From sequence record PZ379594.1: 52,616 nt of DNA; one strand, written 5' to 3'. Below, piece by piece: positions 2,850-37,855 of this stretch (the stretch's first letter is position 1; the number at the start of each line of letters is the position of its first letter). Under the pieces are notes generated by a model that saw only the letters and a program-made list of their open reading frames with translations, searched no databases and was not told the origin of the DNA. The stretch comes from a phage. The translations under genes and the position numbers were made by a program.

Positions 2850-3066
2850 ATGTGTTGCTTCAACCAAAGACTACGTTCCAGTTGGCTTAATCATTGAAGG
2901 TGAAGCTATTTCGCCTTTGGAATTTAAAGTGACTAAATCTGCTGAAAGCATTTCTCCAGCATTCCGTAAAGGTGCTGTCGTTCCTATGAATGGTGCATTC
3001 TGGACATGGCAGCGTGACCATCGTGCAGAATTTGCAGATATTTGTGAGCAAGGTGCATTACAATGA
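2839..3066 (+). CDS. hypothetical protein, member 1 of a tandem paralog triplet (KFKCV...EYVP...WTW)
   Basis: Shares MKFKCV, EYVP-G-IIEGE and P-NG-WTW blocks with the next two ORFs. Confidence 0.5.
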   Translation: MKFKCVASTKDYVPVGLIIEGEAISPLEFKVTKSAESISPAFRKGAVVPMNGAFWTWQRDHRAEFADICEQGALQ

Positions 3067-3293
3067 CAAAGTTTATATGTATAAAATCCTCTTCTTCATC
3101 CGAATATGCTCCTAAAGTTGGAGATGTGATTGAAGGAGAACTTGTACAAATACAGCGAAAACATGGAATCGACACTCGAATAATTGTTTCGAATGTTGGG
3201 GACAGAGTGGCTGCCAATGGCAGACCCTACTGGAGCATTGGTGAAAGTGTCCCATTAAACGGAAGTATTTGGACTTGGAAAGAGGTTAAATAA
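3063..3293 (+). CDS. hypothetical protein, paralog 2
   Basis: MTKFICIK...EYAPKVGDVIEGE...PLNGSIWTWKE; same family as 2839 and 3360. Confidence 0.5.
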   Translation: MTKFICIKSSSSSEYAPKVGDVIEGELVQIQRKHGIDTRIIVSNVGDRVAANGRPYWSIGESVPLNGSIWTWKEVK

Positions 3294-3359
3294 TTTCCTC
3301 AACCACTTTTGTAGTGAGAGTGGTTGCTGAATATTATTAATTAACTTGGAGTATATGAA

Positions 3360-23226: not shown

Positions 23227-23412
23227 ATGCGCACAATACAATGTCCCAACTGCCATTATGAAATTGCAGAAGATGATTTCATAACGCAGCAATGTCCTAT
23301 CTGTGATTCATACATGCCACTAAACCGCCTGTATTTAAAGGCCGATTCTGGTTTAGGCAGCATCATTCGCATCAATCCCGTGCAAACTCAGCCATTAGTG
23401 GATTGTGATTAA
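23227..23412 (+). CDS. small zinc-ribbon protein (61 aa)
   Basis: Two CxxC pairs (CPNCHYE ... CPICDS); GGAG RBS. Confidence 0.45.
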   Translation: MRTIQCPNCHYEIAEDDFITQQCPICDSYMPLNRLYLKADSGLGSIIRINPVQTQPLVDCD

Positions 23413-23431
23413 AAACAAAGAGAACGAATCA

Positions 23432-25450
23432 ATGTCAAAGACTGATGACCTCGGACCGGAGTTTAATGATACAGTAGCCTCGTATCTTGCCAAGCACTAC
23501 GGTGACGTATTAAAAGTCTCAAGAGAAAGATTCTGTATTCTATCTTTGCCATTGCTCCGTCGATATATTTCAGAAAATACTGCAATAGTTGACAGCTATG
23601 AAGAACAAATTCAAGCAGAGTTAGAAGGCCAGGGTCTTGAAAACGATGCTGTATTGCGTTCCGTTTTCAGAGCACAACTTGAGCGTCTTCGCTCTGGCGA
23701 CAAGAAAGACTCGACTGCCTATGCAGATGAGTTGAAGAAAGGTATTCAAGCAGGTGTTACTGACCGTGTTGCAGGTTCCACATTAGAGGAGCCAAACTCG
23801 GAACATGATAACACCGATGAACTTGTAGACAAGATTCTGCATGACCCACATAATGTGGACCCAACTGTAATCCCTGCCAAGGTTGCAGAACGTGTTCGCA
23901 AAATCTTGATGAAAAGTTTCGAAGCCTTTGGTAAATGGCAGTTCCATATTCAGATGGGATTTCCATTTCAAGCACAAGACTTTCACGATGTAATATTCAG
24001 TGTTGGTCAGAAGGTTGTTGATGGTGAGATTGACCGCTTAATAGTGACCATTCCTCCACGACACTCTAAGACTCAGCTCATGAGTATTGCACTGCCCTTG
24101 TATTCATTTTGCCACAATGAATCAAGCCATAACATTATCACCTCGTATGCAGAAGACGTTGTTCTTGAATCGAGTGGTTACATCCGTGCTGTAATGCTGG
24201 ACCCACTATTCCAACGCATATTCCCGAAGGTGAGAATCGACCCCAACAAACGTTCTCTTGAACGCTGGGGTACAACCAAAGCTGGAGTTATGCACGCAGT
24301 ACCTACTGGTGGTAAGCTAACTGGTAAAGGTGCTGGACTTCTTGTTGCAAAATATTCCGGCTGTTTCGTGGTGGATGACGTTATCAAGCCGAAAGATGCC
24401 TACTCTGACACAGTTCGAGCAGAAATCAACGACCGATTTGATAACACCTTTATGTCACGTCTTGCCAACGATGGTTGCATAACTGATTCGTACGGAAACC
24501 AAATTAAGTGTGCCCGTACACCAATGGTTATCATCATGCAGCGAGTTCATGACCAGGATTTAGTTGGTTACATACTCCGTGGTGGCTCTTCTGACAAATA
24601 CCACTATCTCAATATCCCAGCGATTATTGAGAAAGGTGTTGGAAGTGCCGAATGGTATGATAAGTTAATCAAGAAGCAGAACTACACTCATGCTATTCCC
24701 ATTCTGTATAATTTGAACAGGAAGGAAGAGAAGTCTGCATTATGGCCTTCACGTAAGAGCTTAGAATCTCTGGAGGCAATGAAAGAGTCTAACCCATACA
24801 CATACAATTCACAGTATGCTGGCGACCCATCTGCACAAGGCCACGGCCTTATCAAAGAAGATTGGTGGCAAGAGTATGAGCCAGACGTTTTCGACAGAAG
24901 TCGCATAGTCAGAAGTTTTATTACAGCGGATACGGCATCAACTGCCAAATCCTATTCTGATTATTCGGTCCTTAAGCATTGGGGCGTGACTAAAGAGCGT
25001 GATGTTTATTGCTTAGATATTATGCTCGGTAAGTTTGAAACTCCAGAACTCAAGACTGCTATCATCGACTTCTGGAACAAATGCAACAAGTTGGACTTGA
25101 AATGTGTAGGTTGTATTCCTCGTGCACTGTACATGGAAGACAAGTCTGCCGGACAATTCTTGAACCAACAATTTATCAGAGATGGGAGTGTCCGAGTTTT
25201 ACCATTGCCTCGTGATGGGATTAATGGTAATGACAAGGTAACTCGATTCCTTAACGCAATCCCATATTTCTCGCAAAAGAGAATATTCTTCCCTGCTGGT
25301 CATGAACACATTGACCACGTTAGACGTGAAATACTTGGATTCACTTCTTTGGGTAGTGGTACTGGACACGACGATTGTGTCGATAACGTTTCAGATATGG
25401 TTGCAATCGAATTCTCAGGCCCAAGTGCCAACTACTCCGCATGGATGTAA
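23432..25450 (+). CDS. terminase large subunit
   Basis: Large ORF ahead of the portal with a deviant Walker A-like PRHSKTQ; start ambiguous (GTG 23405 or ATG 23432). Confidence 0.65.
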   Translation: MSKTDDLGPEFNDTVASYLAKHYGDVLKVSRERFCILSLPLLRRYISENTAIVDSYEEQIQAELEGQGLENDAVLRSVFRAQLERLRSGDKKDSTAYADELKKGIQAGVTDRVAGSTLEEPNSEHDNTDELVDKILHDPHNVDPTVIPAKVAERVRKILMKSFEAFGKWQFHIQMGFPFQAQDFHDVIFSVGQKVVDGEIDRLIVTIPPRHSKTQLMSIALPLYSFCHNESSHNIITSYAEDVVLESSGYIRAVMLDPLFQRIFPKVRIDPNKRSLERWGTTKAGVMHAVPTGGKLTGKGAGLLVAKYSGCFVVDDVIKPKDAYSDTVRAEINDRFDNTFMSRLANDGCITDSYGNQIKCARTPMVIIMQRVHDQDLVGYILRGGSSDKYHYLNIPAIIEKGVGSAEWYDKLIKKQNYTHAIPILYNLNRKEEKSALWPSRKSLESLEAMKESNPYTYNSQYAGDPSAQGHGLIKEDWWQEYEPDVFDRSRIVRSFITADTASTAKSYSDYSVLKHWGVTKERDVYCLDIMLGKFETPELKTAIIDFWNKCNKLDLKCVGCIPRALYMEDKSAGQFLNQQFIRDGSVRVLPLPRDGINGNDKVTRFLNAIPYFSQKRIFFPAGHEHIDHVRREILGFTSLGSGTGHDDCVDNVSDMVAIEFSGPSANYSAWM

Positions 25451-25452
25451 AT

Positions 25453-25665
25453 ATGGCGGTTATCACTCGTTTAGATGCCCGCTCACGCAAGAACAACTCC
25501 TTCCAGATTCAAGATTTGGAAGGAAACATTTTATGTGTGATTGAGGCAGTTTCTACCACAGAGAGCGACTGTGTTAAGTTAAAGCACGAGTCAAATCTGC
25601 GACTCCACACCTCCGACAACATTCAAATTGTTAAAGGTAATGGAACTATTCTAAGGAAGAAATAA
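25453..25665 (+). CDS. hypothetical protein (~70 aa)
   Basis: ATG at 25453 just after the terminase stop. Confidence 0.4.
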   Translation: MAVITRLDARSRKNNSFQIQDLEGNILCVIEAVSTTESDCVKLKHESNLRLHTSDNIQIVKGNGTILRKK

Positions 25666-26981
25666 TGACTTCCAAGAAGAAAAACAATCTTTCTGTTAAA
25701 GTTGCAGATGGGTTAGAAAACCTTGTAACGGGGTTGGGCGGTCAAGCAGATAAGTCCACTTTCAACCAGTGGACTTTCTCAAACAAGAACGCGAACTATC
25801 GCGAACTTATGAACCGCTTCCGTGAGGACTGGGTTGCACAGAAAGTGTGTACCGTCATTCCTCAGGACATGACGCGTAAGTGGCGACATATTGATACCGA
25901 AGAAGGACGCAAGGCGGATAAGAAACTTCGTATTCGTAAGCTGTTCCGTGAAGCATATCAATGGGCCAGATTGTATGGTACTTCATTTGTTCTGCTCGAC
26001 CTGAAAGGTACGGGCAAACTTGATACACCATTGCGACTGGATAACTTGAAGACTGGATGTATTAAATCCATGAGAGTTATTGACCGCTCACGCTTATTTG
26101 CCGCAGGGACTATGGTTCTGGACCCTTTGAGTCCTCACTATGGTTTGCCAGAGTATTATACTTTGGCTGGGTATCCCGGCTATATCCACTACACTCGTTT
26201 CCTTCGGTTCGAGGGTACTGAACTACCGCTGTTCGAATTCCAACGCAACATGTGGTATTCCGATTCGGTACTTATTCCACTGCTGAAAACGATTGACCAA
26301 TTCTACACAACTGCTGCCGCTGCCGCCAGCCTCGCCCAAGAAGCCACCATTGATGTGGTAACTGTTGAGGGCTTACAATCTCTGCTTACATCACCGGAAG
26401 GTGAAGCTGCTGTGATGAAGCGCTTCAAACTTATGAAGCTGGCAAAGAGTATTTATAATGTCTTAATTCTCGACAATACTGAGAAGTATGACACCAAGTC
26501 AATTGCACTGTCTGGTGTGAAAGATTTGATTTGGGAATACTTGAAGATAGTTGCTGCCGCAGTTGGTATTCCGGCTACACGTTTCCTTTCTGCATCTCCA
26601 GACGGTATGAATGCTACGGGCGAATCTGACCTCGTAAACTATATCGACTTGTTGACAGGCTTGCAGACTTCTGTGTTCGACCCTCGTTTAGATGTGGTAG
26701 ACAAGATTGTCCAAGCGCACTTTGGCATTGAAGAGTATAGCTACGAATGGCTAGACATCTTCCCTGAATCCAACGTTGAGAAAGCGAAGCGAGCTAAAGA
26801 TTTGGCATTTGCTGTTGACCTGTTGGTTAACAACGGTACTATCACTACCGAAGTTGCGAACGAAGTCATGTTCCATTCGGGCGTGTTCGGAACTTGTGAC
26901 CTTGGCAAGCCAAATCCTAATCCTCCTAACATCCAAAAGGGTAACGCAAGTGAAGCAAAACCAAAACCTGGTTCAGCTTAA
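25665..26981 (+). CDS. portal protein (candidate)
   Basis: 438-aa ORF directly after the terminase and before scaffold/capsid genes; AAGGAAG RBS. Confidence 0.6.
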   Translation: MTSKKKNNLSVKVADGLENLVTGLGGQADKSTFNQWTFSNKNANYRELMNRFREDWVAQKVCTVIPQDMTRKWRHIDTEEGRKADKKLRIRKLFREAYQWARLYGTSFVLLDLKGTGKLDTPLRLDNLKTGCIKSMRVIDRSRLFAAGTMVLDPLSPHYGLPEYYTLAGYPGYIHYTRFLRFEGTELPLFEFQRNMWYSDSVLIPLLKTIDQFYTTAAAAASLAQEATIDVVTVEGLQSLLTSPEGEAAVMKRFKLMKLAKSIYNVLILDNTEKYDTKSIALSGVKDLIWEYLKIVAAAVGIPATRFLSASPDGMNATGESDLVNYIDLLTGLQTSVFDPRLDVVDKIVQAHFGIEEYSYEWLDIFPESNVEKAKRAKDLAFAVDLLVNNGTITTEVANEVMFHSGVFGTCDLGKPNPNPPNIQKGNASEAKPKPGSA

Positions 26982-28014
26982 CGACGAAGATACCGTGAAT
27001 GAAGTAGTTTTGTTGAACGACAAGGCTACTTTGACGACCCGTCGTTTACGTGACTCTGGCGAAATGATTGCAGAATGCACCATCGCTCGTACTGGCATCA
27101 TGCTGTATAAAGCAAAAGAACTTGGTGAAATCGCAAAACATCTGGACCCAGAATCTATTTGCCGTGTTCGTACCAAGCCGGAAGTATTATTTGATGAAGC
27201 AACCATTGAAGGTTGTCGCTCAATTCCGGTAACTATCGGCCATCCGAAAAATGATGTTAACATCAAGAACAACAAAGAACTCCAGAAAGGGTTCATCGAA
27301 GGGCGTCCAGTTGCAGACGGTTCTTTCTTGGCTGCATCAATCGTTTTGAATGACGAGCAAGCTATTCGATTAGTTGATTCTGGTGTTGACCAAATCTCCT
27401 TGGGCCATAATGCTGAACTGGCTGTATCAGAAGATGATGAAGCCGACTTCGATAAAGTTCGCATTATCCCTAACCATGCTGCAATTGTTGTTCGTGGTCG
27501 TGCTCAGACTACCCGCATTGGTGACTCTGGTGAAGAGATTGCCATTGTTGATAAGGCAACCTTTGATGTTGTTGAAGCAGAGCGTGATGCAGCGCTTGAC
27601 AAGATTAGTGTCCTTGAACAGAAACTTGCTGATGCAGAAACTGCACGACTATCCGATGAAGCTATTCAGGCTGAGGTAGACAAACGTGTAGTTGCCCGTA
27701 CAGCATTGCTTGTTGATGTGGCCCGTCTTGGCGACGAGTTCTCCAACCTCGATTTCTCCGGCAAGACCGATGCAGAAATTAAGTTGGCTGTAGTTAATAA
27801 ATTGCATGACAAGGATTTCAGCGATAAGAGCGAAGACTATATCTCCGCCCGTTTCGATGCAGCTCTTGAAGATTGCGATTCCATTACTTTGGGAGATGCC
27901 CTGAATCAGTCTATGCAATTCTCTGCTAAGAAAGATTCAGAAGCTCGTAAACCTAAAGTTTCTATTTCCGAAGAAGCTAACAAACGTCGTTTAGAACGCT
28001 TCAACTCTTTATAA
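26950..28014 (+). CDS. head scaffolding protein (possibly with protease function)
   Basis: Between portal and capsid genes; C-terminal coiled-coil-like region; GTG start at 26950 chosen to limit overlap with the portal (listed start 26776). Confidence 0.45.
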   Translation: MKQNQNLVQLNDEDTVNEVVLLNDKATLTTRRLRDSGEMIAECTIARTGIMLYKAKELGEIAKHLDPESICRVRTKPEVLFDEATIEGCRSIPVTIGHPKNDVNIKNNKELQKGFIEGRPVADGSFLAASIVLNDEQAIRLVDSGVDQISLGHNAELAVSEDDEADFDKVRIIPNHAAIVVRGRAQTTRIGDSGEEIAIVDKATFDVVEAERDAALDKISVLEQKLADAETARLSDEAIQAEVDKRVVARTALLVDVARLGDEFSNLDFSGKTDAEIKLAVVNKLHDKDFSDKSEDYISARFDAALEDCDSITLGDALNQSMQFSAKKDSEARKPKVSISEEANKRRLERFNSL

Positions 28015-28023
28015 GGTAAGACA

Positions 28024-28497
28024 ATGCCAAAGCAAGATTGGTCTATTAATACTGGTGAAGCATATGCAGGTGAACAATATGGCCTGGCTACCACCAACTC
28101 CCAGCGCCTGACCTACGTTGCCGAAGAAGAAATGGCAAACTTTGGTCTGGCTGTTGTTCAAGGTACAGCTTCTAATCAGGTTAAACCTGGTATTGGTTCT
28201 GATGGCACTGTTCTGGGCATTACTATGCGCCAGATTAACATCGAATCCGCTACCCGTCCTGGTGACGGTACTGTTGCAATCAAAGTTGGCTGGCCTCTGG
28301 GTGTTATGCTGTCTGGCCCAATCATGGTCAAACTGAAAACTGCAATCACCGACAAGAACATTGGCGTATCCACTAAAGGCGAATTTGGCGGTGTTGGTGC
28401 TGGGTATACTAAAGCAACCAACCTGACTGCCCTGCGTTATCCGGCTTCCGCTGGCGATGTTGTCCCGGTCATGATTAACGTAGTCCCAAAGCCGTAA
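28024..28497 (+). CDS. head decoration/accessory protein, in-frame short form (157 aa)
   Basis: Small, highly expressed-looking ORF (E. coli-optimal codons) immediately upstream of the major capsid gene. Confidence 0.6.
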   Translation: MPKQDWSINTGEAYAGEQYGLATTNSQRLTYVAEEEMANFGLAVVQGTASNQVKPGIGSDGTVLGITMRQINIESATRPGDGTVAIKVGWPLGVMLSGPIMVKLKTAITDKNIGVSTKGEFGGVGAGYTKATNLTALRYPASAGDVVPVMINVVPKP

Positions 28498-28790
28498 CGC
28501 CACCTCCAGCCCCTACAGTATCTGCTGTAGCTGGGGTTGTAACGGCTGATGCGTCTTCTACTGATGCCACTGTAACTGTAGACAAGCTGTTCAAGTTTGA
28601 GAACTCTACAGCAACAGATTATAACTTCGCTGTTACACCTCCTGTGACTGGTGTTTCTGTGGCGGCAAACGGTACTGTGACTGTCTTGAATGAGACGACT
28701 ACAGAGACTTCTGCTACAATTAAGGCAACAAACAAAACAACCTCTAGCGTAACTGCGACCAAAGAAATTACCATTACGCCGAAGGCTTAA
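28024..28790 (+). CDS. head decoration protein, predicted -1 frameshift product with C-terminal Ig-like domain (~255 aa)
   Basis: The 99-codon -1 frame extension has no start codon and translates to a T/V/A/S-rich Ig-like (Big_2-type) sequence. Confidence 0.5.
28485..28491 (+). other. candidate -1 programmed frameshift site C_CCA_AAG
   Basis: XXXYYYZ heptamer in the zero frame, 4 nt before the stop; the -1 frame is open from 28479 to 28790; imperfect GC stem-loop at about 28509-28536. Confidence 0.5.
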
Positions 28791-28798
28791 GTTGCAAT

Positions 28799-28819
28799 GG
28801 CGCAATTAATGGTTGCGCC
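28799..28819 (+). other. stem-loop GGCGCAA-TTAATGG-TTGCGCC between decoration and capsid genes
   Basis: 7-bp perfect inverted repeat; no U-tract. Confidence 0.3.
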
Positions 28820-28845: not shown

Positions 28846-29853
28846 ATGCCTAAGATGATTAAACTGGCGGACGGTTCTGAATTTGAACTGAACGACGCTA
28901 TCACCCGTATTCAGGATTCTGGCACTGTTGTCCTGAATGACGACGATGCAGTATTCTTTCAACGCCAGCTTGAGTTCATTGAAGCTCAAACTTATGACAC
29001 CCTGTATCCAGAACTGGAAGCGCGTGCTGCTTTCGGTGTGGACACCACTGGTGGCGCTGGCGTAAACACTCTGACCTACCGTTCCTACAACCATGTAGGT
29101 AAAGCTCAGGTAATTAACGCCCGTGCAACCGACCTGCCGAAGTCCAGCATTTCTGGTAAAGAATACAGCATCCCTGTTAAATCAGTTGGTACTGCATTCG
29201 ACTACGATATTGACGAAGTAGCGTCTGCTGCTGTTACTGGCCTCCCGCTGGAAACTCGTAAAGCGAATGCTGCTATTCGTGGTTACGAGCAGTATGTTAA
29301 CTCTGCTGCATGGTACGGCGATAAAGCTAACGGCTTTGTTGGCTTCTTCGAAAACCCAGACATTACCAAAGCAACTGTTGCTCAGGGTGCTGGTGGTTCT
29401 ACCAAGTGGGCCGAGAAGACTCCGACCGAAGTTATTGCCGACCTGACTGCTGCTGTGTCTGCAATGTATGCTTCTACTCTGAAAATTATGCGCCCAGATG
29501 AAATCTGGATGCCTGTTGAGCATGAGCAGTACATCTTCAACACTGCACGTTCTGAACAGTCTGATAAGACGATTGGTCAGTTCTTCATTGACAACAACCA
29601 GTTCATCAACTCCCGCGATAAAATCAAGGGTCTGAACGCAATCAAAGGTCACGGCGATTCTGGCTCCGATTGCTTCGTTGTTGTTTGCCGCAATGCAATG
29701 GGCAACCGTACTTTCCGTCTGCGTGAGCCTCTGCCACTGACCTGGCAACCGGTACAGCTTCATGGTCTGGTTTATGAAGTTCCTGGCCGTGGTCGTTTCG
29801 CTGGCTTCCAAGCGATGTATCCGGCAGCAATCTCCATCAACTCCGGCATCTGA
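28846..29853 (+). CDS. major capsid protein
   Basis: Long ORF with E. coli-optimal codons after scaffold/decoration genes and followed by a strong hairpin; ATG at 28846 (listed TTG start 28813). Confidence 0.65.
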   Translation: MPKMIKLADGSEFELNDAITRIQDSGTVVLNDDDAVFFQRQLEFIEAQTYDTLYPELEARAAFGVDTTGGAGVNTLTYRSYNHVGKAQVINARATDLPKSSISGKEYSIPVKSVGTAFDYDIDEVASAAVTGLPLETRKANAAIRGYEQYVNSAAWYGDKANGFVGFFENPDITKATVAQGAGGSTKWAEKTPTEVIADLTAAVSAMYASTLKIMRPDEIWMPVEHEQYIFNTARSEQSDKTIGQFFIDNNQFINSRDKIKGLNAIKGHGDSGSDCFVVVCRNAMGNRTFRLREPLPLTWQPVQLHGLVYEVPGRGRFAGFQAMYPAAISINSGI

Positions 29854-33067: not shown

Positions 33068-33523
33068 GTGAAGCAATATTCGTTTTATAATACAGACCTC
33101 CTGATTGACGGTGCTCGTGTAGACGGTTTTCAGGCAGGGCAATCTGTAATTACGGCACGCTACAACGTGCCACAACATGTTCCTGTAATGGATGCTTACG
33201 GCAAACTTGCTGTAGCAACCACTGCTGACCAGTCTGGGGTTATTACTTTCCCTCTGCTGCAAACGGCAGACTGGAATGAAATTCTGTATCAACGTGCACA
33301 GCTTACTCGTGCAACTGGCCTGTCTGGTAACAAATCCCTGTGGGAACCTTTGCAGATTCAGTTGGTGGATAAGATGGGCGACGTTCTGGTTAACGGTGTT
33401 AACGGTGCAATCCTGCAACAGCCTGCTATTGTTCGTGGTGTAACCTTTACATCCAACATGTGGGCTATCTTTGTAGAGCGCCTTACCATCGTAACTGGCC
33501 AGTATCCAGAAATCGGCGTATAA
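33068..33523 (+). CDS. tail tube protein (candidate)
   Basis: GTG start with AAGGG RBS; size and position between sheath and chaperone. Confidence 0.5.
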   Translation: MKQYSFYNTDLLIDGARVDGFQAGQSVITARYNVPQHVPVMDAYGKLAVATTADQSGVITFPLLQTADWNEILYQRAQLTRATGLSGNKSLWEPLQIQLVDKMGDVLVNGVNGAILQQPAIVRGVTFTSNMWAIFVERLTIVTGQYPEIGV

Positions 33524-33538
33524 CATTAAGGTAAGAGC

Positions 33539-33997
33539 ATGGCTTGTGAACTTCGTCAACGCGAGTTACAAGCCGACTCTGGTGATGTAGTCTTGGTTGG
33601 TACTCGTCAATTGAGTGCCAGCCAAGCTCTTGACCTACAAGTCGAGCTTGTTCAGAAACTTGGAACTTCAATCTTCCCATTCGTTGAGAATAAATATAAC
33701 TTTGCAGACATTATTTATTTAATGCAGCAAGGTGGGACGAGTAACGGAGTAACAGAATTAATTAAACGTGTAGTGTGCATGGCAACCATTGATGGTGTCG
33801 AAGTTACTCCACGCACTATGCAAATGAAATACAACGGCAACTTGATGCTTATGCACCATGTGTTTGCATTTGTTTTGGAATCGAACTTCCTTGATTTTTT
33901 CAAGCAAGGGCTCGAACTCAACGAACGCAGACGATTGGAGGCGGTGGAAGCATCCAAGATGGCCGAGCAGAAGAATTCGAGTCCGGAAACGATTTAA
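33539..33997 (+). CDS. tail assembly chaperone, in-frame short form
   Basis: 152-aa ORF immediately upstream of the tape measure; contains the slippery site. Confidence 0.6.
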   Translation: MACELRQRELQADSGDVVLVGTRQLSASQALDLQVELVQKLGTSIFPFVENKYNFADIIYLMQQGGTSNGVTELIKRVVCMATIDGVEVTPRTMQMKYNGNLMLMHHVFAFVLESNFLDFFKQGLELNERRRLEAVEASKMAEQKNSSPETI

Positions 33998-34170
33998 CTG
34001 CAAAGTTCCCGGAAATAAAATACTTCTTGCACCGTCCTGTAATAGAGGACAGTTCACTCTGTTCTCTTAAAGAGTTACAAGATGGGACCTACTCTATTAT
34101 GGATTTGTTGACCTTCCACGCAATACTCGATTTGCGTAACGAATTAAAACCTAAAGAAGAAGACAATGGC
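33539..34170 (+). CDS. tail assembly chaperone, predicted -1 frameshift long form (G-T-like, ~210 aa)
   Basis: Canonical G/GT (P2 E/E') arrangement: the -1 frame opens at the slippery heptamer and ends at the tape-measure start. Confidence 0.55.
33895..33901 (+). other. candidate -1 programmed frameshift site T_TTT_TTC
   Basis: Heptamer in the chaperone zero frame (GAT TTT TTC); the -1 frame has a stop at 33892-33894 and is then open for 92 codons to 34170, 4 nt past the tape-measure ATG. Confidence 0.6.
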
Positions 34171-37100
34171 TAATAACATAAAAGATTTGATGAGAATGTC
34201 CGAAGCCGAATTGATTGGCTTAGGCGCTCAATATGGTCTGTCGTTCAATCCAGGTATGCGCAAACGAGATATGGCACAGCAACTTGAATCAAGTGCTGCA
34301 TCTGGTTGGATGGAAACAAATTCGCAGCTTATGGAAGAAACTCATACAGAAGATGATGGCATCTCTTATGGCACTTCCGACATGATTTCAGACTCAGCCC
34401 ACATTGCACAGATGATTTCTGGCGCTGGGCTGACTGAAACATTCCATGCTGCAATGAACGGTCCAAGTCACCATGTAGAAGCTATTCATGCCTACATGGA
34501 GAAATTAGGTGTATCCGCCGATGATGTGTGGATGCACATGCCCAAAGCAAACCCGAACAAACCGGAAGGTCATTGGGGAATGCTTAATGCGTACATGCGT
34601 GATACGCTGACAGGCCATCAAGATATAATGCCAGAGCTTCCTGGACATTATTCAGGCGACATTATGGGCGAGTATTCCACAAACCGTGGAGATATTGCCA
34701 AGTCGTTCGGCTATCTTGCCCACATGTATGTTGACCGTGAACAGTACGACAACCCAGACCGCTATGCACGAGATGTTTATCGTGTAGCCAAACGTTTAGA
34801 ATCAGAATTGCCGCAAAACTTCCGAGAAGTTGCTGCGGTATCTGCAATGAATGTAGGAAATAAGTCGGGGCCAAAACTTTCATACATGGATTCATTGCCT
34901 AAACTTGGCTCTGAGTCAATTGTTAGTGGTATCCAACACCCTAGACAGCCACTTAACGCATCTGGTTTACCACTTGGCTCATTTGGCAGCGGTATTAATG
35001 CCGAATACTCATTATCTGCATCCTTATCTGGCTCGCCAGGCTGGTCTGATGTAAGTAGGACTCTGTACCAAGATGTTTCTAGCGTAGTTAAGTCTGCGGC
35101 AAAGGTCTATTCTGGTGATTCTGAAAGAGGAATGAACGCGTACCGCACTCAATCTTCTGACAGAGATTTGATTCTTGATTCTGCTTCCCGGTATACAGAC
35201 CTTGCTGATGCTCGTTCTGGTTATGACAACTTGAAGAAAGATATTGGCGATGACCCACGTTATTCTGGTGCATCAATTCGCGGTGTACTTGAAAATGCTC
35301 ACCAATATAATGAGGCCGAAGTTACCAAAACATTCGACCCTGCTGAACGTTTAAGAAATACTGGACCTACTGAACTTGGTACATCCAGTGAGTTTACGGC
35401 AAATCTGAATGAACCGACAAGTTGGAACTCTGCAAGGGATAGAAGAGAAGCTATTGCTATTGCAAATCTCGATAGTGCTGGTGCTGGACAGCCTAGTTCG
35501 GTTAAATACCACAATGCGCTCGAACAAGGTACGCAGGAGTGGCTTGATTTTCGTAAGCAGTACGATATTACTGGCTCTACTATTGGTGATTATCTGGGCC
35601 ACAACCCCGCAACCAATAATAGCCCAATACATACAATGGGCGAGAAGATTGGCCTCACAGTAAGAAAGGATTCTCCACGAGCACGTGAGAACTTTGAGCG
35701 TGGTCATAGGCTGGAAGCATGGGCCAGGCCAAGAGTTGGTGAGAAGTACGGGGTTGAGATAACCGAAACTGGCGCAATCACTAACGATAATTACCCTGGT
35801 ATGATGTACTCGCCAGATGGATTAATTGGTGATGACGCTCTGTGGGAACATAAGGCTCCAAACAACTTTAAAGATTTGGAATCAACTCCTAACTACATGG
35901 ACCAGATGCAACTTGGTATGCTTCTGAGTGGTCGTAGTCGCACCCTGTTTACTCAAACTGTTGGCGAAGAATCTCGTAGCCAGTGGGTTGATGCTGACCC
36001 AACGTGGTTCGAACGTAACAAGAATAAGATTGCATCTTCACAAGCACGCATGAAAGCTGGTCGTGAGTTTATGGAAAGCTCTGACCTTGAGGGCAAAGAC
36101 CTTATTAATGCAACTCGTGAAGTTATGTCTGGTGGTGGCATCTGGGGATACCAGACTCGTGACCACAGGGAAGGTGAAGGATACACGGCTGGTAAGCGTG
36201 GAATGGCAAGGTACAGTGCTGCTGCTGGCACTGATGATGACCCGTTCTTAAGAAACCGCACCGATGCTGGAATTGGTGCTTCTACAGCATCTGCTGTTGG
36301 TGCTGATAGCACAACTGGCAATGACCTGATGGCAGTATCTGTCAAGAAAGGTATTCTCGCTGCACAGGAAGAAAACAAGCTGCGTGGACAAGATGCCGAC
36401 TTTGGTGGAAATGATGGTCGTGGTGGCGGAGGTGGCTTCTGGGATACATTTGATGCCAGCAGTTATGGTATCAGCGGAGGTGGTTCTGGTGGCGGCGGTC
36501 GTGGTGGTTGGAGAGTTGGCGGTAGCTTCTCAGATGACTTCGGTCGTGCTGGTGGAGCATTGGCTGCTGGCGTAGCTGGTGGCAGCATTGGTTCATTATC
36601 CAATGGCGCAATGAATGCCCTCATGATGACTCCTTGGGGTCGTGTAGCTGGCATGGCTATTGGTGCTGCCCAGATTGGAAACGAAGCTCTGGAAGGTCTG
36701 AACGACTTCTACGGCAATTCTTTAGATGCTGGTGTTAATAATCCTAACGAATATTCTTCCATGACTCAGGGCATGGAAATGTTGGGACTTAACTCACAAC
36801 AAGCCAATCGACTCAATCAAACCACACATAGTGCCTATAACACCCTCCTAAATGGCGACCCCAGCGGCGCTGTGAACATCGTTCAGGGAACCCGTGGTCT
36901 TATCACAATTGGCGACATTCGTGCGGCACAGGGCGACCCTGTGGCCCTAGCGCGGATAATGCGTGAGCGTGGTCAGGAACGGGGTTGGAGCCAGGCCCGT
37001 ATTGCTGGTGCAATGCAAATGGCTGGTCTGGACGGTATGGCTCGTGCCTATGACCGCACAGAATACAGCATGAGCGAGGCTGAGGCGAACGTTAAGCGCG

Positions 37101-37855
37101 GAGCCGACTCAAACTATGCCGAAGGCGTTGCACAGCTAGGAATCGCGCAGACGGAGCGTGCTGGCGTACTGCCTGGATACGCTGTTCCGCAAGCTGCAAT
37201 TTCATACGGCAGCACCTTTATTGAGGCAGGCGGCGATGCCGCTAGAACGATGCGTGTGGCCTCCAACGGTACAGCCGATGCAGCACGTAATGTTTATGAC
37301 TTTATCGCAGGAGAAGAGTCAGGGAACCGCGATTTTAACGCAGATGGTTCGGTAGTTACATCGCCAACTGGTGCTAAAGGTCGTATGCAAGTTCTTGATT
37401 CAACTTCTCGTGACCCTGGCTTTGGTGTTCGTCCTGCCAAAGATAACTCACTTGAAGAACGTGCCCGTGTTGGTCGTGACTATTACGATGCAATGCTTAA
37501 GCGATATAATGGTGACGCTGAGAAGGCTATGGCGGCGTACACAGATGGTGCCGGAACTGTTGATGATGCTATCAACAAACATGGGACCGACTGGCTGAAC
37601 GCTGTTCCACTACAGGCACAGAACCGTGTCAAGAAGTACCGCGAATGGGCTTCTCAGGGAGATTCTATTGCAGAAGGTGCAACTGGATTCACCAGAAACG
37701 GACTGTCCTATGGTCAGACACAGCCCACCATAGTTAACGTTGAAGTCAAAGCTACCGTGAACAACAAACAAGCGTCTGCAACCGTGTCAACTCCGAACGG
37801 TCAAACTGTTACCCAAACAATCAACATGGGTAATGGTGCAATGGAACGCAGATAA
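34166..37855 (+). CDS. tail tape measure protein with C-terminal lytic transglycosylase-like domain
   Basis: 1229-aa ORF after the chaperone; Gly-rich segments; SLT-like block EESGNRDFNADGSVVTSPTGAKGRMQV...AYTDGAG. Confidence 0.75.
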   Translation: MANNIKDLMRMSEAELIGLGAQYGLSFNPGMRKRDMAQQLESSAASGWMETNSQLMEETHTEDDGISYGTSDMISDSAHIAQMISGAGLTETFHAAMNGPSHHVEAIHAYMEKLGVSADDVWMHMPKANPNKPEGHWGMLNAYMRDTLTGHQDIMPELPGHYSGDIMGEYSTNRGDIAKSFGYLAHMYVDREQYDNPDRYARDVYRVAKRLESELPQNFREVAAVSAMNVGNKSGPKLSYMDSLPKLGSESIVSGIQHPRQPLNASGLPLGSFGSGINAEYSLSASLSGSPGWSDVSRTLYQDVSSVVKSAAKVYSGDSERGMNAYRTQSSDRDLILDSASRYTDLADARSGYDNLKKDIGDDPRYSGASIRGVLENAHQYNEAEVTKTFDPAERLRNTGPTELGTSSEFTANLNEPTSWNSARDRREAIAIANLDSAGAGQPSSVKYHNALEQGTQEWLDFRKQYDITGSTIGDYLGHNPATNNSPIHTMGEKIGLTVRKDSPRARENFERGHRLEAWARPRVGEKYGVEITETGAITNDNYPGMMYSPDGLIGDDALWEHKAPNNFKDLESTPNYMDQMQLGMLLSGRSRTLFTQTVGEESRSQWVDADPTWFERNKNKIASSQARMKAGREFMESSDLEGKDLINATREVMSGGGIWGYQTRDHREGEGYTAGKRGMARYSAAAGTDDDPFLRNRTDAGIGASTASAVGADSTTGNDLMAVSVKKGILAAQEENKLRGQDADFGGNDGRGGGGGFWDTFDASSYGISGGGSGGGGRGGWRVGGSFSDDFGRAGGALAAGVAGGSIGSLSNGAMNALMMTPWGRVAGMAIGAAQIGNEALEGLNDFYGNSLDAGVNNPNEYSSMTQGMEMLGLNSQQANRLNQTTHSAYNTLLNGDPSGAVNIVQGTRGLITIGDIRAAQGDPVALARIMRERGQERGWSQARIAGAMQMAGLDGMARAYDRTEYSMSEAEANVKRGADSNYAEGVAQLGIAQTERAGVLPGYAVPQAAISYGSTFIEAGGDAARTMRVASNGTADAARNVYDFIAGEESGNRDFNADGSVVTSPTGAKGRMQVLDSTSRDPGFGVRPAKDNSLEERARVGRDYYDAMLKRYNGDAEKAMAAYTDGAGTVDDAINKHGTDWLNAVPLQAQNRVKKYREWASQGDSIAEGATGFTRNGLSYGQTQPTIVNVEVKATVNNKQASATVSTPNGQTVTQTINMGNGAMERR

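Follow-up and report, generated by a model that had tools for sequence, protein, structure and literature searches.

A conserved –1 slip site in the capsid cement gene of phiEcoM-GJ1-like phages predicts a second, Ig-bearing form of the protein

Sequence record PZ379594.1, a stretch of 52,616 nucleotides (nt) that we refer to in its entirety as 'the window', belongs to a phiEcoM-GJ1-like coliphage (Chaseviridae, Cleopatravirinae, Carltongylesvirus); our subject here is the gene for its capsid cement (decoration) protein, and in particular the reading frame that overlaps the end of that gene. From its sequence and from structural models of its products, we consider it very likely that the gene is decoded in two ways, with a –1 slip at a C_CCA_AAG heptamer yielding a 255-amino acid (aa) form that bears an immunoglobulin (Ig)-like domain. 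Our computations establish the slip site together with its frame and conservation; they further show that the –1 frame is coding, that its translation models as an Ig-like fold and that the carrier is a cement protein. A preliminary description of the same DNA had proposed that a –1 frameshift furnishes a head protein with an Ig-like domain, so that products of 157 and ~255 aa are made; that prediction finds support in conservation across relatives, in ratios of non-synonymous to synonymous substitution (dN/dS), in the predicted fold and in the precedent of phage T3. The elements concerned are as follows:

28024–28497, + strand: capsid cement/decoration protein gene, its 157-aa 0-frame product ending ...MINVVPKP-TAA (Pfam, PHROG, AlphaFold2/Foldseek)
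28476–28478, + strand: TAA in the –1 frame, which it closes up to 28479, where the open stretch starts 6 nt ahead of the heptamer
28485–28491, + strand: slippery heptamer C_CCA_AAG, in the X_XXY_YYZ frame of the cement gene ((28485 – 28024) mod 3 = 2)
28495–28497, + strand: 0-frame stop codon TAA, 3 nt (CCG) past the heptamer, which terminates the short form
28491–28790, + strand: –1 extension, 99 codons plus stop (TAA, 28788–28790), the first post-slip codon being GCC at 28491
28491–28514, + strand: Pro-rich linker AVTPPPAP, joining the cement protein to the Ig-like domain; it also serves as spacer and, in the putative stimulator, forms the 5′ arm
28515–28781, + strand: Ig-like β-sandwich domain, extension residues ~9–97 (AlphaFold2, Foldseek, PHROG)
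28490–28547, + strand: putative 3′ stimulatory irregular stem-loop, with an apical hairpin at 28514–28529 and CCAGC/GCUGG pairing of 28506–28510 with 28530–28534

The cement gene ends GTC CCA AAG CCG TAA; the first C of CCCAAAG is the third base of the GTC codon, thus placing the heptamer in the X_XXY_YYZ frame. Direct reading of the sequence therefore confirms the preliminary description where it has the 157-aa open reading frame (ORF) ending VVPKP-stop with an in-frame C_CCA_AAG, and again where it has the –1 frame opening 6 nt upstream of the heptamer and running for 99 codons, from 28479 to the TAA at 28788–28790. The spacing of 4 nt that it gave between heptamer and stop needs correcting to 3 nt (CCG, with the stop at 28495–28497), and its statement that the –1 frame lacks a start codon holds for ATG, of which the extension contains none, but not for GTG and TTG, which are present from codon 54 (28644) onwards; the first of these falls in the middle of the domain and is without a Shine-Dalgarno sequence. 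The predicted long form comprises 156 + 99 = 255 residues, and its predicted tryptic peptide directly after Lys156 is AVTPPPAPTVSAVAGVVTADASSTDATVTVDK.

The heptamer itself is a potent one: of the –1 heptamers measured in Escherichia coli, C_CC.A_AA.G is the most efficient (up to 54% in combination with the IS3 pseudoknot), and it is among the three best –1 motifs when stimulators are moderate (Sharma et al. 2014, PMC4066793). Its occurrence in the window is at the level of chance (7 copies observed versus 6.4 expected), with that at 28485–28491 being the only + strand copy to lie in slip frame; the + strand copies at 34541 and 39771 were considered as slip sites and rejected, both being out of slip frame. 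An open frame of 98 codons would arise by chance with a probability of about 0.003–0.007, and a scan of the window for –1 open stretches past gene stops was uninformative, as the neighbouring genes of packed operons fill those frames. With the heptamer count alone at chance level, we judge the frameshift site to be real because of the conservation seen across 31 distinct related loci.

These loci were collected from GenBank phages, IMG/VR and metagenome assemblies, have cement proteins that are 40–100% identical to that of the window, and were counted as carrying an extension where the –1 frame ran for at least 49 codons. A slip motif is found 0–15 nt ahead of the 0-frame stop in every locus with a –1 extension (27/27), this being C_CCA_AAG in 24 of them and one of three other heptamers in the rest:

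C_CCA_AAA: 1 locus (L030)
G_GGA_AAA: 1 locus (L035, cement protein 40% identical to that of the window)
G_GUA_AAG: 1 locus (L038)

The distance from heptamer to stop in these relatives is 0–3 nt, or 15 nt in the case of L035. All four of the loci that have no Ig ORF also have no slip motif (L037, with a cement protein 86% identical to that of the window, L039, L040 and L032); their cement genes end in a short Ala/Pro/Gly-rich tail and, in the three for which gene calls exist (L037, L039 and L040), the next gene, 60–90 nt on, is the capsid gene. These four are natural no-module variants, and as such provide natural controls. Across the loci, the codon ahead of CCA varies (GTC/GGC/CTC/ATC/GCC/TCC, encoding V/G/L/I/A/S) with its third base invariably C, and a third-position C that is held while the residue changes points to selection on the nucleotide required by the heptamer, rather than on the encoded amino acid.

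The –1 frame is coding, and under strong purifying selection from the slip site onward. A comparison of 14 homologous extensions gives a dN/dS of 0.12 for the –1 frame, where the other two frames have 1.7 and 2.6; the value is 0.10 when taken over codons 3–53 alone, a section that lies upstream of any GTG or TTG in the window; dS for the extensions is ~1.25 across genera. ATG is absent from all 22 extensions inspected (0/22), and the positions of GTG and TTG are scattered over the same set, nearly all without a Shine-Dalgarno sequence; there is thus no consistent start, and gene callers in consequence set their 'starts' at many different columns. A natural in-frame fusion of cement protein and Ig-like domain was not found by a search with the extension, by a hidden Markov model (HMM) search of 1.84 billion proteins, or by a search with the cement protein. 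The longest member among 86 cement homologue clusters is ≤177 aa, i.e. the protein is never fused in frame, and ~60 of the 86 clusters end in P-K plus 0–1 residue; distant relatives of the extension occur on tail-tube or Big_2 proteins. Alongside this we observe, in the IMG/VR contig UViG_3300036796_000019 (L035, ~1950–2297), the sequence CTG GGA AAA 15 nt before the cement stop, followed by a 124-codon –1 ORF with weak similarity to He_PIG/PKD/Big_9; as the cement protein here is so distant from that of the window, and the heptamer is another of the canonical type, the arrangement extends more widely than the C_CCA_AAG clade.

The carrier is a capsid cement/decoration protein of the Pam3 type, and not the major capsid protein. 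The 157-aa ORF matches the Pfam family PF22758 (Phage_cement; E217 gp24/Pam3 gp6) with 63.8 bits against a cutoff of 27, over residues 4–152 of 157, and PHROG 563 ('virion structural protein') with E = 3e-27; PF22758 is present in 86/86 of the homologue clusters. Its AlphaFold2 model (predicted local distance difference test, pLDDT, 80) has as its top PDB match the Pam3 capsid chain 8hdt_G (E = 4e-6, template modelling (TM) score 0.66), with further fold matches to the decoration proteins of T1, FCWL1, XM1, TW1 and HFTV1, and to the N-terminal base of the phi29 head fibre gp8.5 (6qyy, E = 1.7e-4). When searched by sequence, the cement profile has no match in the PDB at E ≤ 0.01, and its kinship to the solved cement and decoration proteins is therefore remote. 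In virions of phage 4HA13, the cement homologue is the best-covered protein, with 100% coverage by liquid chromatography–tandem mass spectrometry (LC-MS/MS; PMC9699118, Table S2). The 'head protein' of the preliminary description thus stands as far as a virion structural protein is concerned, with the more specific identity being that of a cement/decoration protein.

Modelled separately from the cement protein (alignment of the whole 255-aa fusion misplaced the Ig fragments), the extension is predicted with confidence by AlphaFold2 to form a β-sandwich of nine strands (pLDDT 90.6; predicted TM score, pTM, 0.79). A Foldseek search of the PDB matches this model to the C-terminal Ig-like domain of T5 pb6 (5ngj; E = 7e-5, TMq 0.63), and likewise to an Ig domain in phi29 gp8, to invasin and to cadherins, each of these with probability 1.00, as well as to SraP; at the level of sequence, the extension matches PHROG 13745, 'Ig domain containing protein', with E = 9e-8. 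The Ig-like character that had been suggested for the extension is thereby upheld. The more specific label of Big_2 (PF02368) is not: the Pfam search that had been suggested as a check returned neither an Ig family nor Big_2 for the window extension at E ≤ 1, and we have rejected the label accordingly. A weak match to Rpf1_C (0.033) was set aside as compositional noise. The variant in L030 scores 13.9 bits against Big_2, below the cutoff of 22.8, where a T3 control scores 39.9 bits. Being Ig-like by fold and without a match to Big_2, the domain is one that has the Ig-like fold and is not a member of that family.

Taking these elements together, we propose the following. Most ribosomes would read GTC CCA AAG CCG TAA through to the stop, releasing the 157-aa cement protein. 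A minority would slip at C_CCA_AAG, with tRNA-Pro (on CCA) in the P-site and tRNA-Lys (on AAG) in the A-site both re-pairing one base back, on CCC and AAA; decoding would then go on in the –1 frame as GCC GTA ACG..., to give a long form made up of cement residues 1–156, the Pro-rich linker AVTPPPAP... and an Ig-like β-sandwich of ~90 aa. The two forms probably co-assemble on the capsid via their common cement domain, in which case the long form would present sub-stoichiometric Ig-like domains on the surface of the head, probably for weak adhesion to carbohydrate surfaces. Slippage itself, its efficiency, co-assembly and the adhesive role are what we infer from the computed features.

The relatives also reveal what may be exchanged behind the slip site. 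In Flopper (L005, 1062–1649), and likewise in JL1, SA91KD and DE15, the Ig module and its linker are tandemly duplicated in frame to give a 195-codon extension, which predicts a long form of the cement protein with two Ig domains. In a further group of loci (L022/L023, L027/L028, L029 and L038) the slip site and linker are kept, with the domain behind them belonging to Pfam Ig_2/Ig_3/I-set and being unrelated to that of the window; the extensions of the window and L022 have only VTPPPA in common, so that it is the linker that is retained where the domain differs. The Yersinia phages PYps3T, PYps4T and PYps16T (L014, 1062–1220) keep the heptamer, with an internal deletion that leaves an extension of just 52 codons; their Ig domain has probably decayed recently and become defective. 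We put forward, tentatively and as a possibility that we would rate as less likely than not, that the slip site and Pro-rich linker (PK-A/V-V-T-PPP) constitute a fixed 'socket' for exchangeable display cassettes, in which the frameshift is kept for the sake of sub-stoichiometry. The cassettes (GJ1-type Ig-like, I-set/Ig_2 and other β-domains) may be swapped by recombination, duplicated and deleted, and the frameshift may never have been resolved into a fusion because the cement lattice tolerates the bulky long form in capsid assembly only when it is sub-stoichiometric.

Directly 3′ of the heptamer, the window can form the irregular stem-loop listed above, with a minimum free energy of –34.5 kcal/mol (z = –3.5 versus dinucleotide shuffles). 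When its pairing is projected onto 17 relatives, 77% of cells are paired as compared with 20–56% in slid controls, and 14 cells show double (compensatory) changes against an expectation of 8.0±1.6. Synonymous-site entropy is 0–0.8 bits in the first ~7 post-slip codons versus ~1.1–1.2 elsewhere, though this low variation is in part due to the overlapping 0-frame stop. It is plausible that a 3′ RNA helix adjoining the heptamer stimulates slippage in this clade, and we regard the stem-loop as a candidate for that role.

Several observations weigh against two-way decoding of the cement gene, or against parts of it. The fold energy of the stem-loop is no better than that of synonymous-codon shuffles in most of the relatives, and the alifold consensus retains just a 5-bp hairpin, such that the stimulator is not robustly conserved; the downstream stem-loop noted in the preliminary description does exist in this phage, with modest support for its conservation from the pair counts. 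No upstream Shine-Dalgarno-like stimulator is visible. The virion proteome of 4HA13, the sole one found for the family, lists the accession of the 157-aa protein and does not report the extension (PMC9699118). Lastly, the PYps3T-type phages keep the heptamer despite their truncated 52-codon extension, meaning that retention of the heptamer is, by itself, no proof of current function.

This last point is the starting place for one of the rival explanations, by which the –1 ORF would be the decaying remnant of a once-fused domain, with the heptamer kept for other reasons (e.g. for its P-K residues) and no functional long form being made. The truncated extensions of the PYps3T type fit such a history, as does the complete loss of the module in some relatives. 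A dN/dS of 0.12 maintained across genera, at a dS of ~1.25, is nevertheless incompatible with a pseudogene; the domain behind the site has in places been exchanged for an intact, unrelated Ig domain; the wobble C ahead of CCA is conserved while the amino acid varies; and relatives that lack the module also lack the heptamer. On this evidence decay is extremely improbable as an account of the locus. The Ig-like ORF could otherwise be a separate small gene, expressed from a non-ATG start of its own or by termination–reinitiation past the cement stop, and existing records do annotate it in this manner (ST32 gp56, Y2 gp67 and the 'Ig protein' of BSBP01), annotators and gene callers having placed ORFs of 45–91 aa with GTG or TTG starts in this position. 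The starts so called are at differing, non-conserved positions and without a preceding Shine-Dalgarno sequence; in the window there is no ATG, GTG or TTG before codon 54, and a start at that point would cut the β-sandwich in half. Purifying selection is already evident straight after the heptamer (dN/dS of 0.10 over codons 3–53), and a separate gene would leave the association of heptamer and ORF unexplained; we therefore hold this explanation to be highly unlikely.

A long form could equally be produced by transcriptional slippage of RNA polymerase, or the layout could reflect a sequencing or assembly indel in what is truly a fused gene, either of which could lead to an identical protein outcome; the phage family is described as encoding its own single-subunit RNA polymerase (PMC12842549). 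An indel is at odds with the identical out-of-frame layout seen in >25 independently sequenced genomes and metagenomic contigs, and with the finding that 0/86 homologue clusters are fused. As for slippage by the polymerase, the site holds only runs of C3 and A3, and known transcriptional slippage needs longer homopolymers. Neither version strikes us as having more than the slimmest chance of being correct, and translational frameshifting at C_CCA_AAG is the reading that we carry forward.

Recoding as a means to append Ig-like domains to phage structural proteins is already well known, as exemplified by the T3 10B class, and it is with gene 10 of T3 (10A/10B) that the closest parallel is to be drawn. 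There, an identical C_CCA_AAG in an E. coli phage directs a –1 shift a few codons before the 0-frame stop (CTC CCA AAG GTG TCG GAG TAA, annotated in GenBank as a –1 frameshift), adding ~90–100 aa that form one Ig-like domain and giving two virion forms from a single gene (PMC5009743), as is predicted for the window. The two systems differ in their carrier, which for T3 is the HK97-fold major capsid protein and for the window is a cement protein (PF22758); in the extension, which in T3 is a Big_2 domain (39.9 bits), whereas that of the window has no Pfam Ig match and no sequence similarity to its T3 counterpart; and in the distance from heptamer to stop, at 9 nt in T3 versus 3 nt in the window. 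Ig-like domains are also reached by frameshifting in the capsid protein of Lactobacillus phage A2 and in the Listeria phages A118/A500/PSA (Atkins et al. 2016, PMC5009743), and such domains are known to move between phages, landing in or out of frame (PMC5009743). In common with the window, the A2 and A118/A500/PSA systems place a C-terminal Ig-like domain on a virion surface protein via recoding, though with other hosts, carrier proteins and slip sites; the clade of the window is further distinguished by keeping its slip site and linker across several genera, with the Ig cassette behind them being swapped out, duplicated or lost. The G/GT system of lambda resembles that of the window in that a –1 shift takes place at an X_XXY_YYZ heptamer close to where a phage morphogenesis gene ends, yet its product is an assembly chaperone that is absent from virions, not a displayed surface domain.

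From the side of the carrier, the cement protein of the window shares its family (by HMM) with Pam3 gp6 and E217 gp24, and its predicted fold with these and with the decoration proteins of T1/XM1/TW1/HFTV1; its gene also occupies the usual position directly upstream of the major capsid gene. Unlike for the window, a frameshift extension on any of these proteins was not found reported. T4 Hoc displays Ig-like domains. In both phi29 gp8.5 and T4 Hoc, as would be the case here, the capsid-binding base of a decoration protein bears an outward-projecting module, the difference being that both are made in frame and at full stoichiometry, without recoding. What marks the present case is the use of a cement protein as carrier, the conservation of the arrangement over several Chaseviridae genera, and the exchangeable nature of the Ig cassettes. 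In the 17 related GenBank/RefSeq records that we inspected, the two frames are never joined (0/17); the extension is either missing from them or split into pieces called 'Ig domain containing protein' or 'hypothetical protein'. Our literature search, which did not cover the phiEcoM-GJ1 genome paper, likewise found no paper reporting a frameshift in the cement gene.

Shigella phage vB_Shi_2KOFFS and Escherichia phage Ecp_YSF share 99% identity with the region, and ST32 and phiEcoM-GJ1 share 91–96%. No tRNA genes are encoded in the window, and there is thus none that could alter decoding. The cement gene (28024–28497) has the DUF2213 scaffold/protease gene before it and the major capsid gene after it, within the following series:

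23405–25450: terminase gene
25665–26981: portal gene
ending at 28014: DUF2213 scaffold/protease gene
28849–29853: major capsid protein gene (PF09950)

A perfect 7-bp hairpin (GGCGCAA-ttaatgg-TTGCGCC, 28799–28819) follows the –1 extension and its stop, ahead of the major capsid gene, which starts at 28849. It has no T-tract, for which reason it could be a terminator or attenuator for a phage RNA polymerase, or else a processing or stability element; terminators and a promoter are annotated around this region in the related record of SA91KD. Further downstream, a 152-aa ORF located between the genes for the tail tube (33068–33523) and tape measure (34166–37855) contains an in-frame T_TTT_TTC at 33895–33901, from which the –1 frame is open for 92 codons, to a TAA at 34171–34173; by its sequence, this element (33539–34173) looks like a classical tail-assembly-chaperone frameshift of the lambda G/GT type. 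Two database entries for relatives also merit comment. In that of the closest relative, vB_Shi_2KOFFS (L003, 2347–3353), two neighbouring coding sequences for 'major head protein' (2347–2946 and 2964–3353) stand in place of a single major capsid gene, which suggests an indel or sequencing error and not real biology. Over 3.4 kb, PP952070.1 ('Staphylococcus phage Pel53', with Staphylococcus hyicus given as host) has 91.5% identity to the coliphage family of the window; a Staphylococcus host label is surprising for a relative of Chaseviridae coliphages.

The predicted cement–Ig frameshift corrects the annotation of a whole phage family, and takes the T3 10A/10B paradigm beyond major capsid and tail proteins, to a protein of the cement/decoration kind. 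The family also supplies a natural set of variants (with one or two Ig copies, with swapped Ig families, with a truncated module, and with neither module nor heptamer) that is usable to probe the roles of capsid Ig-like domains in adsorption, in adherence to mucus or other surfaces and in stability, and that could show why such domains stay sub-stoichiometric. For those engineering therapeutic coliphages of this family, the slip site would be a ready-made, low-copy position for display; and, were the slip site and linker indeed to act as a socket for exchangeable cassettes, then these phages would possess a natural, tunable and modular phage-display system built upon a decoration protein.

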